Positions 9,499 to 14,104 are shown, counted from the first letter of the stretch. The stretch: DNA of 14,104 nucleotides from a virus (IMGVR_UViG_2667527839_000010); one strand, 5' to 3'. The notes: generated by a model not told the origin, from the letters alone. Numbers and translations: made by a program.

Positions 9499-10485
9499 GT
9501 GAGTGATTCTGCATATATGAATGCATTACAAGAGCAGTTTGGAGATTTGAAATATTCAAATTTCACTGTTCAGTTCATGCCTCCTATTATTTTTGTTTGT
9601 GGTGGGCCGATAAATTCCACTCCAATGAGTGTACGAGACCACATATTTACTTATGTAGCAGGCCACAAACCTGAATTGTCAGATTCTCTTATTTTAGCTG
9701 AGAACTTCCATGACTACTTCAGAGAGGGGGCATATTCAGATCTAATGAGCTTTGAAGATGATATTGCAAATATTTCAACATTAGTTGTTATCTGTTTAGA
9801 AAGTGCAGGTTCGTTAGTTGAGCTTGGATTATTTGTTAATAGGAAGTCTCTAGCTCAAAAATTGCATGTAGTCGCACCATTTGAGGAGATTGAGGGAAAT
9901 GAACGAAAAAATATTCCTGCTAGATCTTCTTTTATATATTTAGGCCCTTTGGAGTATCTTAAAAAAATAGATGAGGCCTCAGTATCAGTTTATCCATGGC
10001 CAAAATCGGATCGTATGAAATATGATGAGGTTGAGCTTATCTACCATGATATTCATTCTAGATTAAAACGTGTAAAAAAAACGGAGCGATATAACCCTGA
10101 AAATACTGGGCACCTAGCTATATTGATTTACGAAATAATCCTTTTATCAGAACCAATCAAGAAAAGCGAAATAGAGTGGGCACTATACTGTATGGATATA
10201 GATGTGCCACAAAAAATAATATCTCGTTTACTTTATTTGCTTGAAAAGATGAAATTAACCTCATCATTATCTTACAGTGGTACAGACTACTTTTATTCCC
10301 GAGGGCATAGAGAGAGTAAACTTAAATTTGGTATCAGTGCTAGTGGTAAAATAAAGGATTCTATGAATATTAAGGTTGCAATCCGACAATCTTACTTAAG
10401 TATGGATGCTAAAGATATGGACGAGACTGCAAAAAAAAGGAAAAATGCTCTAAATCAAATCAATATCGTGCGTGGAGGGGCTTAG
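9499..10485 (+). CDS. Retron effector: nucleoside 2-deoxyribosyltransferase-like (NDT-like) domain protein with a C-terminal putative DNA-binding region, 328 aa
   Basis: N-terminal PIIFVCGGP and STLVVICLESAGSLVELGLFV fit the NDT fold (Rossmann-like strand, then a conserved Glu in a VELG context); C-terminal half is a separate, helix-rich region. GTG start at 9499 with GGAG/AGGGGG upstream; alternative ATG at 9517. Stop TAG 10483-10485 abuts the RT start. Confidence 0.8.
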   Translation: MSDSAYMNALQEQFGDLKYSNFTVQFMPPIIFVCGGPINSTPMSVRDHIFTYVAGHKPELSDSLILAENFHDYFREGAYSDLMSFEDDIANISTLVVICLESAGSLVELGLFVNRKSLAQKLHVVAPFEEIEGNERKNIPARSSFIYLGPLEYLKKIDEASVSVYPWPKSDRMKYDEVELIYHDIHSRLKRVKKTERYNPENTGHLAILIYEIILLSEPIKKSEIEWALYCMDIDVPQKIISRLLYLLEKMKLTSSLSYSGTDYFYSRGHRESKLKFGISASGKIKDSMNIKVAIRQSYLSMDAKDMDETAKKRKNALNQINIVRGGA

Positions 10486-10486
10486 A

Positions 10487-11419
10487 ATGGAGTTGCTAAG
10501 TTATATTTCAAAAGGTCTTTTTCTTAGCGAAGAAGAGGCTAAAAGGTATATTGTTACTATTCCACGCAGATATAAAATTTATCCTATCGCCAAAAGAAAT
10601 GGTAATGGATATAGATTAATTGCACAACCAGCTAGGCAAGTTAAAGCCTTACAGAAGGTAGTAATCAATCATATGTTGGCTAATTTGAAAGTTCATGAAA
10701 ATGCTTTCGCTTATGAAGCCGATAAAAGTATTAGATCTAATGCGTTAATGCATTGTAATAATGATTATTTGCTTAAAATGGATTTTAAAAACTTTTTTAT
10801 GAGTATCAAACCCCATAATCTTTTATCTGTCTTAAAAGATTATGGCGTTGAACTAACTGATACTGATATCTTTGTTCTTAAAAATCTTTTCTTCTGGAAG
10901 TTAAGAAGAAATAGCCCATTACGCCTAAGTGTTGGAGCACCTTCTTCTCCCATTATTTCAAATGCAGTAATGTATTTCTTCGATGAGGAAATATCGAAAA
11001 GATGCAAGGATTTGGATATTACCTACTCAAGGTATGCTGATGATCTTACGTTTAGCACCAAAGTCAAAGGAGCTTTATTTGATGTTCCTAAGTTAGTAAG
11101 GGAAGTTCTTAACGTAGTAAATCTTAGGAATATTAAAATAAACCATGAGAAAACAGTTTTTACCTCAAGGAAGTTTAATAGACATGTAACTGGTGTAACT
11201 ATTACGACTGATGGTTATTTGTCTTTAGGTCGTGATAGAAAGCGTCTTTTAAGAAGTAAAATACATTATTACGTGTGTGGGGTTTTATCTGAGAAAGAAA
11301 TTCTAACCCTTAAAGGAGAATTAGGCTATGCGAAATTTATTGAACATAAATTCTTTACCTCCATGATTAAGAAATATGGGGATGATGTAATCAGCGAAAT
11401 TTCAAAATATGAAATTTAA
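10487..11419 (+). CDS. ret: Retron-type reverse transcriptase, 310 aa from ATG 10487 (315 aa if GTG 10472)
   Basis: Retron RT motifs: YRLIAQPARQVKALQKVV; LLKMDFKNFFMSI (cf. DxxxFFPSI); SVGAPSSPIISNAVMYFFD (cf. QGAPTSP); YSRYADDLTFS (YADD); NHEKT; VTGVTIT (retron-specific VTG). GGAGG at 10474-10478 precedes ATG 10487. AT-rich composition matches the effector gene. Confidence 0.9.
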   Translation: MELLSYISKGLFLSEEEAKRYIVTIPRRYKIYPIAKRNGNGYRLIAQPARQVKALQKVVINHMLANLKVHENAFAYEADKSIRSNALMHCNNDYLLKMDFKNFFMSIKPHNLLSVLKDYGVELTDTDIFVLKNLFFWKLRRNSPLRLSVGAPSSPIISNAVMYFFDEEISKRCKDLDITYSRYADDLTFSTKVKGALFDVPKLVREVLNVVNLRNIKINHEKTVFTSRKFNRHVTGVTITTDGYLSLGRDRKRLLRSKIHYYVCGVLSEKEILTLKGELGYAKFIEHKFFTSMIKKYGDDVISEISKYEI

Positions 11420-11664
11420 TAGCTTGTTGTCCTAATAAATCAGCATGACTTTATCTAGCTTGCGCAAGGTTGGTTCAGAGGTTTGGTTGTTCTGGTTAGG
11501 CTCTGTAAGACGGAACCTAACTAGGCAACTCTATCTTGCTAATTCATTTATTGTGCTAGTTAGCAACAATAAGATTTTGTTGGGGGCACAAAATGGGGCA
11601 CAAGTCATAAGCTATAAAATTTTTATCATCATGTTCAATGAGTTATATAGTTATTCTATTCCGG

Positions 11665-11696
11665 CCTTCGCACCTTCGCACCTTCGCACCTTCGCA
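11665..11696. repeat. Perfect tandem repeat (CCTTCGCA)x4 within a tRNA-Leu 3'-end-like sequence (putative degenerate attR)
   Basis: ccttcgca at 11665-11672, 11673-11680, 11681-11688, 11689-11696, preceded by ttctattccgg and followed by ccatcgg. The context TTCtAtTCCGGCCTTCG-CACC...A resembles the 3' end of E. coli tRNA-Leu(CAA) leuX (..TTCGAGTCCGGCCTTCGGCACCA) as I remember it. Confidence 0.85.
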
Positions 11697-11712
11697 CCAT
11701 CGGAACATCAAT

Positions 11713-11735
11713 AGACGTCAACGGACGTTTTTTTT
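11713..11735 (+). terminator. Short hairpin plus T8 run downstream of the retron/att region
   Basis: acgtc (11715-11719) / gacgt (11724-11728), 4-nt loop, then 8 T (11728-11735). The stem is short, so confidence is moderate. Confidence 0.4.
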
Positions 11736-11901
11736 ATGACTGAAATCCGCGCCACACAAGGCTTTTCGCTATTTTTCGCTCAACCTAAGTCAACCTACAT
11801 CAACTTACTGATGTGGATACAGCTACAGCTGCGGCTATATCCCGATTCGATAATGTTTGTACCCACACAAAACCCTTGAAAGGCTACAAGGCTGAAATTG
11901 T

Positions 11902-12087
11902 CTAAACCATAGAGATGATTTTTATGATCCAGTCTTTCTCTTGTTGAGATAGTTCCAGTTTGCTCACTCGTGTTAAGAAGGTATTGATCACCTGAACATC
12001 CGAATTGGTGAGCCTATTTAATAGAGCGGGTGGTATACCTTTACTAACAATTGCTTTGCGGTGACTTTCGTAGTTTTTATTACTCAT
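11902..12087 (-). CDS. Hypothetical small protein (61 aa)
   Basis: Open frame only; no motif recognised; may be a fragment together with the upstream 77-aa ORF. Confidence 0.3.
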   Translation of the reverse strand: MSNKNYESHRKAIVSKGIPPALLNRLTNSDVQVINTFLTRVSKLELSQQEKDWIIKIISMV

Positions 12088-12152
12088 TGGTGATCCTCAA
12101 ATATCATTGTATGGCGGCATTGATCGTTTCCAGCAACCTTTACTTACTCACT

Positions 12153-12386
12153 TCAAACTGCATCCTCGTAGACTGTTCCACTACAATAATCGAAAAGGCG
12201 CGGATGTCCATTCAGGTATCCCGCTAATACGTATAGCAATAACAATGGTTTATGCGGTGCGCGCTGTTCACCCTTATGCCAGATTTTTATATTGGCAATT
12301 GCCTGCTGTAGCGATTTACTGGAAGCCATTGATATCCCTGGCAGTGAAATAATTGCGATCATGCTCGCAAATTTTCTGCTGTTCAA
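12153..12386 (-). CDS. Hypothetical small protein (77 aa), hydrophobic N-terminus
   Basis: Open frame only; overlapped on the + strand by an implausible 81-aa ORF (12107-12352); could be a gene remnant. Confidence 0.25.
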   Translation of the reverse strand: MNSRKFASMIAIISLPGISMASSKSLQQAIANIKIWHKGEQRAPHKPLLLLYVLAGYLNGHPRLFDYCSGTVYEDAV

Positions 12387-12465
12387 GCCTGCAAGTGAAG
12401 ATATATTACCTTGATCTCATTTGTTTTTTTGCTGCTTGTTCTGAGAACGTATAAGGACATTCTCC

Positions 12466-13116
12466 ATGAATAAACTCCCCGATCATCTTCCTCGGCGGTA
12501 TATCATCAAAGCTATTCATTTATGGGATGCGGGAGAAACTCATCAGTTCCAGCCTGCACGGTTGTATGAGATTGAATATCATGGCCGACGTTACCCCTCG
12601 AAGGCGATTGCTGGTATCGCAGCGACATTGATGACGGGGACGCAATTTACCCCTGCGGATTTCACCGGCGGAATAAAATCTAAATGCGTCAAGCTACTTA
12701 TAGATCAGGGATTTCATATTCATCAGGATAAAGCCGCTGCGGCTCCCATAGCCGATGTTCTGTTCCCGGATGAGTTGCCGTCGCAGGGGACCTACGTTGA
12801 AGGTGCGGCGATAAAGGTGACGGTAAACCGCTATGAACGCGATAAAAAAGCTCGCGAGAAAGCAGTCGAACATCACGGATGCCAGTGCAACGTATGCGGC
12901 GTTGATCTGGTGAAGATCTATGGCGATATCGCTGAGGGTTTTATCCATATGCATCACCTGGTGCCGCTTTCAGCCATTAAAGAGGATTACCAGCTGGATC
13001 CAGTTAATGATTTACTTCCTGTGTGCCCTAATTGCCATGCGATGCTGCACCGGCGCAAACCACCGTTTACGCCGGAGGAGTTAAAAGCGCTGATGGATGC
13101 GAATAAATCAAATTAA
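12466..13116 (+). CDS. HNH endonuclease family protein (McrA-like C-terminal HNH nuclease with an N-terminal putative DNA-recognition domain), 216 aa
   Basis: C-terminal CQCNVCGVDL...FIHMHHLVPLS...DPVNDLLPVCPNCHAML matches the HNH zinc-finger nuclease motif. ATG 12466 with AAGGA (12453-12457). Confidence 0.8.
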   Translation: MNKLPDHLPRRYIIKAIHLWDAGETHQFQPARLYEIEYHGRRYPSKAIAGIAATLMTGTQFTPADFTGGIKSKCVKLLIDQGFHIHQDKAAAAPIADVLFPDELPSQGTYVEGAAIKVTVNRYERDKKAREKAVEHHGCQCNVCGVDLVKIYGDIAEGFIHMHHLVPLSAIKEDYQLDPVNDLLPVCPNCHAMLHRRKPPFTPEELKALMDANKSN

Positions 13117-13123
13117 TGAACGC

Positions 13124-14104
13124 TCACCTTTCGCGCCAAAACTGCAAAATTGCTTCTACAAACCTGTCAGAAATAATCCCCCGACGGGCTGCCGCGCTGA
13201 AATGACTGCTTCGCAGTGCCGTCGTCCAGTTCTCCGGTGACCGGTACGCTGAACCGTAATATCCCGTGCTTAAATCGTCCGGATCTTCATCAGGCGCGTT
13301 CGTCAGTCCTCTTTCACCTTGTTGCTGGAAGTCGACGAAAATAATATTGGCTAAAACATTATTTTGATAATTGCCATAAATAACTTCATACGCATGAGGG
13401 AAATTTTCTTTCCAGTACCAGGTGGTATCGCCGCAAAACCATGGTGCGTCAGTAATATTATTAAGCTGAGAATGGTATTGTTTTAGATCCCTACGAAAGG
13501 CTTCAACCATATGATTAAAGTGTTGAGGATGTGACGCGTAGTCACTGGTCATTAAGTCAAATTCGCCTTGCATCCAGCATACGCCGAGGAATTTGTTCTG
13601 CGGGTTTTTTACCAGTGCGGCTCGCGTTCTGCTGACTAAATCCTGGTATAGCGGAGTATCCGTTCCCCAACGACAAGCATCATGGCTGGCTCCGTGCCGT
13701 TCTGAATATGTCCCTTCGCTGCCCGCTGTAAAAGCCGATCCGCCACGGCAACATGGAACGATGAGAACCCCTGCATTATCAGGAATAAAGGGTAGTAATT
13801 TCCGTGCAATATGCAGTGCCTGGCCAACGGTGCCGTACTGTGTTTGATGATTCGTTGCCAGAGGATGGTGATAACCCTGCATATCCTGAACATCGTGTGG
13901 GCAGTGAGTCAGTGGAATAATGTCGTTAAAGTGACATGACGGGCCTCCGGGATGCGTATGCGCAAATCTCGCTAATTGTTTAATTCTGGGATGAGGCGCA
14001 TCTTCACTGTCCGGTAATGGCAGTCCTTCGCCATACGCCATGGCATTAGACTGACCAGCAACGGTAAGAACATAGTAATAATCGGGCGATATTATTGCGT
14101 CCAT
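13124..14104 (-). CDS. nanS: SGNH-hydrolase family sialate O-acetylesterase (NanS/YjhS-like), 326 aa; start codon at the window edge
   Basis: N-terminal YYYVLTVAGQSNAMAYGEG (GQSN block of SGNH/sialate O-acetylesterase family); length 326 aa matches chromosomal NanS as I recall. Converges on the HNH gene with a 7-bp gap. Window ends at its ATG, so an upstream extension cannot be excluded. Confidence 0.75.
   Translation of the reverse strand: MDAIISPDYYYVLTVAGQSNAMAYGEGLPLPDSEDAPHPRIKQLARFAHTHPGGPSCHFNDIIPLTHCPHDVQDMQGYHHPLATNHQTQYGTVGQALHIARKLLPFIPDNAGVLIVPCCRGGSAFTAGSEGTYSERHGASHDACRWGTDTPLYQDLVSRTRAALVKNPQNKFLGVCWMQGEFDLMTSDYASHPQHFNHMVEAFRRDLKQYHSQLNNITDAPWFCGDTTWYWKENFPHAYEVIYGNYQNNVLANIIFVDFQQQGERGLTNAPDEDPDDLSTGYYGSAYRSPENWTTALRSSHFSAAARRGIISDRFVEAILQFWRER

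Follow-up and report, generated by a model that had tools for sequence, protein, structure and literature searches.

The window, the whole stretch of 14,104 nucleotides that was analysed, is the leuX region of Escherichia coli. A review lists the leuX locus as hotspot #37 for defence in E. coli, with the highest occupancy among 41 such islands (PMC12707154). At the left end lies an integrase (1-1263), followed by a type II-A retron consisting of an NDT effector (9499..10485) and a reverse transcriptase (10472..11419). To the right of these we find the attR of the leuX island (11660..11702, plus strand), a spacer (11703..12185), the 5' remnant of the phosphorothioate-dependent SBD-HNH gene ecoWIR (12186..12329, minus strand), a divergent intergenic control region (12330..12465), an HNH endonuclease gene (12466..13116, plus strand) and, converging on it, the chromosomal backbone gene nanS (13124..14104, minus strand). 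nanS encodes a sialate O-acetylesterase of 326 amino acids with a SASA esterase domain and is 97.7% identical in nucleotide sequence to nanS of K-12. The retron sits in a P4-like satellite together with the integrase and an open reading frame (ORF) of primase-helicase size; its effector was assigned as PADLOC NDT_II-A (E 1.6e-87) and overlaps the start of the reverse transcriptase, the two genes spanning 9499-11419.

Right-hand limit of the retron satellite

The attR is composed of an 11-nt repeat of the leuX 3' end, present as a single copy in the window at 11660-11670, followed by an array of the octamer CCTTCGCA. The array has 4.8 copies in the window, and its copy number varies among strains with different leuX islands. 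We took the attR core as 11-19 nt and located it with shorter patterns and alignment; a 25-nt pattern of the leuX 3' end, allowing up to three mismatches, gave no match in the window. ARAGORN identified no tRNA gene in the window, which places leuX itself upstream of position 1. When the window was compared with strains 97.3 and 2013C-3513, which carry unrelated leuX islands, identity of 97-100% began at 11665 and 11673, respectively, at the shared attR. The 2.4 kb from 11665 to 14104 are thus common, at 97-100% identity, to strains with unrelated islands. This flank, and the HNH gene with it, therefore falls outside the retron satellite, being both shared between these strains and to the right of attR. 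The original prediction had placed the gene to the right of a putative attR and outside the satellite, and had named an attR on the far side of the gene as one observation that would speak against this. Its placement agrees with our mapping, in which attR ends at 11702 and the gene starts at 12466. In strain 97.3 a 14-nt leuX repeat was limited to leuX and the junction, with none further rightward as far as uxuB. The analysis of the HNH gene in this way fixes the right boundary of the retron satellite and assigns the gene to the resident leuX hotspot, not to the mobile element.

The spacer between attR and the ecoWIR breakpoint contains a terminator-like hairpin (11713-11738) and is shared with strain 97.3 and a second locus of our set (L004). 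The stretch 11689-11887 shares 76% identity with sequence immediately upstream of a second integrase gene in E. coli W, and on this match the spacer probably represents what is left of an older tandem island, a stub of its left end. Within the spacer we also observed an ORF of 61 amino acids on the minus strand (11902-12087), called hypothetical in some RefSeq records, which had no match in Pfam, NCBIfam or PADLOC.

The HNH gene and its protein

The HNH gene opens with an ATG that is preceded by a Shine-Dalgarno sequence, AAGGA, at 12453-12457, and encodes 216 amino acids identical to RefSeq WP_001037977.1; the identical coding sequence is already annotated in strain 97.3. A database search returned 2638 homologues, the best with an E value of 1e-138, which identifies this as a real gene and no chance ORF. 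A protein of this length with a C-terminal HNH motif had been predicted from the DNA, as had a gap of 7 bp to the nanS stop codon and the lack of a terminator, and all of these were confirmed: Pfam HNH matches residues 141-197, the gap corresponds to 13117-13123, and no terminator-like hairpin is present in or near it. The end of the gene had been set at 13126, which is 10 nt too far: the HNH gene ends at 13116, and the minus-strand stop codon of nanS occupies 13124-13126. A further ORF of 29 codons (13116..13205, plus strand) starts with an ATG that overlaps the HNH stop codon (TAATG) and runs antisense to the 3' end of nanS. Translation and comparison with K-12 showed that it shares its frame and stop with K-12 ythB. 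PGAP calls it a hypothetical protein in strains that bear the HNH gene, and it is probably not an independent gene here.

The protein consists of three parts. Residues 1-90 (12466..12735, plus strand) form a head domain with the ScoMcrA_N fold, arranged alpha-beta-beta-alpha-alpha-beta. Residues 91-121 (12736..12828) make up a flexible linker, predicted to be disordered, with pLDDT below 50 and alignment columns that are variable in length and weakly conserved. The remainder (12829..13065) contains an NRYERD motif and the beta-beta-alpha-metal core of the HNH domain with its Cys4 zinc site. The AlphaFold model of the whole protein has a mean pLDDT of 80.7. Within the HNH domain the zinc ligands are C141, C144, C187 and C190, accompanied by H163/H164, H191 and H195. 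The Pfam HNH match of the window protein is barely above the threshold (21.9 against 21.4 bits, E 2e-4), and its orthologues score 30-36 bits. In an alignment of 34 family sequences the residues of the pattern CxxC...HH...CxxCH (CPNCH)...H are invariant, and the window protein retains all 37 of the 37 family-invariant residues. With the head present and the Cys4 zinc site and catalytic histidines intact, the protein belongs to the ScoMcrA_N-HNH family (PF26345 plus PF01844, ~210 aa).

A profile search of the N-terminal domain, which the original prediction had put forward as a check, identified it as the ScoMcrA_N head. Residues 24-87 align with residues 29-93 of ScoMcrA (Sco4631, PDB 5ZMM), a Type IV enzyme from Streptomyces coelicolor, at an E value of 9e-5. 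The head of ScoMcrA has the same fold as the N-terminal domain of the window protein and has been described as small, flexibly attached and of unassigned function (PMC6224610). ScoMcrA is larger, however, at 561 aa, and carries between its head and HNH domains an SBD, which reads phosphorothioate, and an SRA, which reads 5mC/5hmC; its known specificities come from these two domains, and the window protein has neither. The likeness to EcoKMcrA (6GHC) and TagI (6GHS) is confined to residues 123-198, which align with the EcoKMcrA HNH domain, whereas the N-terminal domain is unrelated to NEco, the 5mC/5hmC-binding domain of EcoKMcrA, and matches the ScoMcrA head instead. The gene had also been described as a stand-alone, Type IV-like or McrA-like restriction gene. 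The stand-alone HNH and the Type IV-like design hold, but the McrA likeness is restricted to the HNH half. The minimal enzymes of Type IV that join a reader to an HNH domain (224-283 aa) are similar in design, and cut near, not within, the modified site.

A search of the full library with the head alone gave 594 clusters at 50% identity, of which we sampled 20 for domain architecture. Among these we observed the head joined to SRA and HNH_2, with or without NUDIX; to EVE and HNH; to EVE and a McrB-type AAA_5, in one case with Mrr_N as well; to DUF3427 and either NOV_C or DUF7669; and to an unassigned region followed by HNH. The usual company of the head is the known readers of modified DNA, SRA, EVE, DUF3427 and SBD, and this recurrence with reader and nuclease domains marks the head as a recurrent module of modification-dependent restriction enzymes. 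We found no characterised structural relative of the head. In the 216-aa form it is the sole non-catalytic domain. The ScoMcrA_N-HNH family is widespread and conserved across phyla, and our literature search found neither a published characterisation of the family nor biochemical reports on head-HNH proteins. In a scan of genome contigs most of the proteins returned shared the HNH half alone, with the head matched by tblastn in 5 of 80 loci.

The divergent ecoWIR neighbour and erosion of the cassette

The HNH gene and ecoWIR form a divergent pair, an old defence cassette of two genes, of which the window keeps the HNH half intact. The ecoWIR remnant, an orthologue of the EcoWI gene, comprises 48 codons and matches positions 2-45 of NF045808, the profile for phosphorothioated DNA-binding restriction endonucleases (44 profile positions, 60 bits), after which its frame continues into unrelated sequence to a stop at 12153; RefSeq annotates it as a partial pseudogene. 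Intact ecoWIR genes of 290 aa lie at the same site in other strains, E. coli W among them, and the window aligns with those of loci L005 and L006 only over 12186-12439. EcoWI, an SBD-HNH enzyme, cuts GpsAAC at N7/N6; it is active in vitro as a homodimer and needs no partner to restrict dnd+ plasmids in vivo (PMC7461809). The product of the strain W locus has a mass of 33.3 kDa, compared with 33.4 kDa reported for EcoWI (PMC7461809). As that paper and its supplement give no accession, we infer from the enzyme name, size and annotation that EcoWI is encoded by the strain W locus. The two neighbours differ in construction. EcoWI combines an SBD reader with an HNH_2-type domain (PF13391), whereas the window protein has an HNH of the PF01844 type and no SBD, scoring 14.7 bits on NF045808 against a cut-off of 180. 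Comparison of EcoWI with head-HNH genes by tblastn gave E values of 0.05-0.45 across just 27 residues, which is not significant.

The intergenic region contains the HNH ribosome binding site (12453-12457) and, at 12353-12370, the palindrome TTGCGATCATGCTCGCAA, which is perfect, reads TTGCGAT(C/G)ATGCTCGCAA and is located 24-41 nt upstream of the start of ecoWIR. Although the remaining intergenic sequence diverges, the palindrome is kept in E. coli, K. aerogenes and C. farmeri; it is partly deleted in K-12, and we regard it as a candidate operator or 5'-UTR hairpin. A simple sigma-70 scan identified no consensus promoter upstream of the HNH gene. Outside E. coli, the divergent pair of SBD-HNH and head-HNH genes was also present in K. 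aerogenes, C. farmeri and Klebsiella sp., where the contexts are unrelated, with head-HNH orthologues 65-72% and EcoWI orthologues 75-80% identical across these genera. Paralogues of both genes are also found on one integrative and conjugative element (ICE), 4 kb apart. Head-HNH genes with neither an SBD-HNH gene nor a methyltransferase nearby occur in Pantoea, Enterobacter, Shewanella and three metagenomic lineages, and solitary copies among ordinary genes, likewise without methyltransferases, in Raoultella and Pseudescherichia. For EcoWI, a commercially relevant enzyme for phosphorothioate mapping, the HNH gene is a conserved divergent neighbour, previously unstudied and lost from strain W by deletion. 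In one Klebsiella aerogenes locus (L093, 4260-6636) genes for Mrr_N-HNH (219 aa), SBD-HNH (289 aa) and ScoMcrA_N-HNH (211 aa) proteins stand side by side and adjoin a Type I restriction-modification system, forming a compact Type IV mini-island.

Of 5426 complete E. coli genomes, 1239 carry the HNH gene over at least 80% of its length and 1707 carry ecoWIR by the same measure. The occupancy across strains, proposed beforehand as a check, accordingly puts the full-length HNH gene in 23% of genomes, and it is not universal core, the other observation that had been named as speaking against the prediction. Some part of the cassette was detected in 4937 genomes, so that it occupies the nanS edge of the leuX hotspot in ~90% of E. 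coli, in varied states of erosion. Both genes are intact and contiguous, as judged with a synthetic query of 1660 nt, in 326 genomes, where ~390 would be expected under independent retention. Approximately 913 of the 1239 genomes with a full HNH gene lack an intact adjacent ecoWIR, and 871 genomes have the window haplotype, with attR, stub, 48-codon ecoWIR and intact HNH gene. The HNH gene is deleted in more than half of E. coli genomes. In strain W and others, 580 bp (12431-13010) have been lost and only the final 105 nt of the gene survive; in O157 the last 48 nt remain, and in strain 4/2-1 both ecoWIR and the HNH gene carry deletions. It had been left open whether the gene was a second small insertion beside the tRNA island or the remnant of an older one, and given this cassette the older remnant fits better and a second insertion less well. 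Carriage on plasmids is negligible: only 5 of 72,556 plasmid records carry 80% or more of the protein, and at least three of the five, at 1.2-5.4 Mb, greatly exceed the size of ordinary plasmids and look like mis-filed chromosomes or megareplicons.

The alleles differ in condition. Pairwise dN/dS among E. coli HNH alleles is 0.10-0.24, over up to 5% nucleotide divergence, and the window allele has no change at invariant positions. The commonest other allele (WP_001037966.1, ~94.9% nucleotide identity; L004 8001-8651, L107 1501-2151) carries C187Y, a substitution of a zinc ligand, which was confirmed in both sampled members and in the cluster representative (P0001). This class makes up about half of the full-length copies, an estimate taken from evenly spaced rows of the hit ranking. 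The allele of strain 1303 has R122C, also at an invariant position, and frameshifted and truncated forms occur as well. The C187Y and R122C changes suggest lineage-specific inactivation. Judged from sequence, the gene appears to be eroding in the species, while the window copy looks intact.

A further product of this erosion is the small protein YthB. In K-12 MG1655 a deletion of ~630 bp has spared the ecoWIR stub, the intergenic region with the promoter and ribosome binding site of the HNH gene, and the gene's opening five codons (MNKLP). These codons are now joined to the frame beyond the HNH stop, which is antisense to the nanS 3' end. The fusion product, MNKLPAHLSRQNCKIASTNLSEIIPRRAAVLK, is the annotated small protein YthB (b4802, 32 aa). 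The related sites are 12466-12489 and 13116-13205 in the window and 12598-12696 in the MG1655 locus (L097). This alignment identifies YthB as the translated scar of the deletion of the HNH gene; we found no paper stating such an origin. YthB has been detected by chromosomal epitope tagging (bioRxiv 10.1101/511675) and by mass spectrometry (PMC12529367), and ythB-nanS has been listed as a convergent excludon (PMC12288877). The K-12 counterpart of the intergenic region 12330..12465 drives expression of YthB. Together these reports show that E. coli both transcribes and translates the start region of the HNH gene, with transcripts entering nanS. Since the sigma-70 scan was blank, the case for expression of the HNH gene is made from K-12 YthB instead. 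YthB also serves as a caution against taking every detected small protein as an evolved gene.

Proposed role of the HNH protein

We consider it probable that the HNH gene encodes a solitary ScoMcrA_N-HNH restriction endonuclease that depends on modified DNA (Type IV). The interval from attR to nanS contains no methyltransferase, and neither a methyltransferase nor an immunity gene accompanies the HNH gene. Autonomy of the protein is favoured by the ~913 genomes that lack an intact adjacent ecoWIR, by the 871 with the window haplotype and by the solitary homologues; the low dN/dS and the retained invariant residues speak for an intact, selected gene, the recurrence of the head beside known readers for a reader role, and YthB for expression. 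Against this reading count the loss of the gene from more than half of E. coli genomes, C187Y in about half of the full-length copies, the frameshifted forms, the blank sigma-70 scan and the marginal Pfam HNH score. The solitary head-HNH homologues sit between housekeeping genes, and their neighbours differ in every genus. The gene is of an ordinary type and adds a few new details.

Other origins for the gene were weighed against this reading. It could be cargo of the retron-bearing P4-like satellite or a homing HNH endonuclease derived from a phage, as it lies 750 bp from the right end of the satellite and phages commonly carry HNH genes. This is extremely improbable, as the gene is to the right of attR in a segment (11665-14104) that is 97-100% identical in strains with unrelated islands, and there is no intron, intein or terminase context. 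A search of 50,697 phage records gave eight matches, all to the HNH half at 33-42% identity and none over the head; with no full-length homologue in these records we rejected a phage origin. Scarcely more probable is a nuclease outside defence, for example a toxin paired with the 29-codon ORF in the manner of a toxin-antitoxin system or a nuclease of repair or competence. The TAATG overlap between the HNH stop and the start of the small ORF would fit a toxin pair, but that ORF is antisense inside nanS, the K-12 YthB frame arose through deletion, and in other genera the downstream context differs and no conserved co-translated partner ORF was seen.

The remaining explanations concern the state of the gene and its neighbour. 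The gene may be a relic without current function, its ORF intact for lack of time since selection ended. The repeated deletions at the locus in K-12 (ythB), strain W, O157 and strain 4/2-1 are consistent with such a relic, as are the C187Y and R122C substitutions at invariant positions, the frameshifted forms and the truncation of ecoWIR in the window itself. We nevertheless think this unlikely, given a dN/dS of 0.10-0.24 over up to 5% divergence, the retention of every invariant residue in the window allele, the conservation of the family across phyla and the demonstrable expression of the start region in K-12. Somewhat more doubtful still is a role as a dedicated EcoWI partner that acts on phosphorothioated DNA as a heteromer or in sequence, in which case the protein would be an inert orphan here beside a truncated ecoWIR. 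The divergent pair in differing contexts in four genera (E. coli, K. aerogenes, C. farmeri and Klebsiella sp.), the paralogues of both genes that ride one ICE, the fusion of head and SBD in the single polypeptide of ScoMcrA and the conserved palindrome in the shared intergenic region all speak for such a partnership. However, EcoWI works alone, both as a homodimer in vitro and in restricting dnd+ plasmids in vivo (PMC7461809), strain W naturally lacks the HNH neighbour, and the HNH domains of the two proteins fall into separate Pfam families with no significant similarity. E. coli genomes keep one gene roughly independently of the other (326 with both against ~390 expected), dN/dS is low between alleles that have the HNH gene only, and head-HNH homologues at greater distance stand alone. 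On account of the near-independent retention, the activity of EcoWI alone and the solitary homologues, we gave less weight to an obligate two-component system with EcoWI.

It is possible, and we put this forward tentatively, that the ScoMcrA head is an autonomous reader of a modification that has no assigned reader, perhaps one related to phosphorothioation, with the 216-aa protein as the minimal enzyme of a new Type IV specificity class and with ecoWIR and the HNH gene as a cooperating cassette of two nucleases instead of two independent genes. The connection of the head to phosphorothioation is drawn from its repeated linkage to SBD-HNH genes and from its fusion with an SBD in ScoMcrA. The 216-aa protein would be the simplest system in which to learn what the ScoMcrA head, described in 2018, recognises.

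For a solitary Type IV endonuclease we envisage the following mechanism. The head domain would bind DNA carrying a modification that E. coli does not make; the Dam (GATC) and Dcm (CCWGG) marks are excluded because the enzyme would otherwise be toxic to its own host. Nearby DNA may then be nicked or cut by the tethered HNH domain, which probably works as a dimer, so that the protein would restrict incoming modified phage or plasmid DNA alone, independently of EcoWI. Transcription from the shared divergent promoter region would be expected to enter the 3' end of nanS, there being no room for a terminator between the two genes. RefSeq PGAP often marks nanS as a partial pseudogene where the 29-30-aa ythB-like ORF is called on the opposite strand (loci L001, L002, L004-L007 and L088). 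The nanS ORF of the window is nonetheless intact over 326 codons, and these pseudogene calls are likely an annotation artefact of the overlap with the ythB-like ORF.
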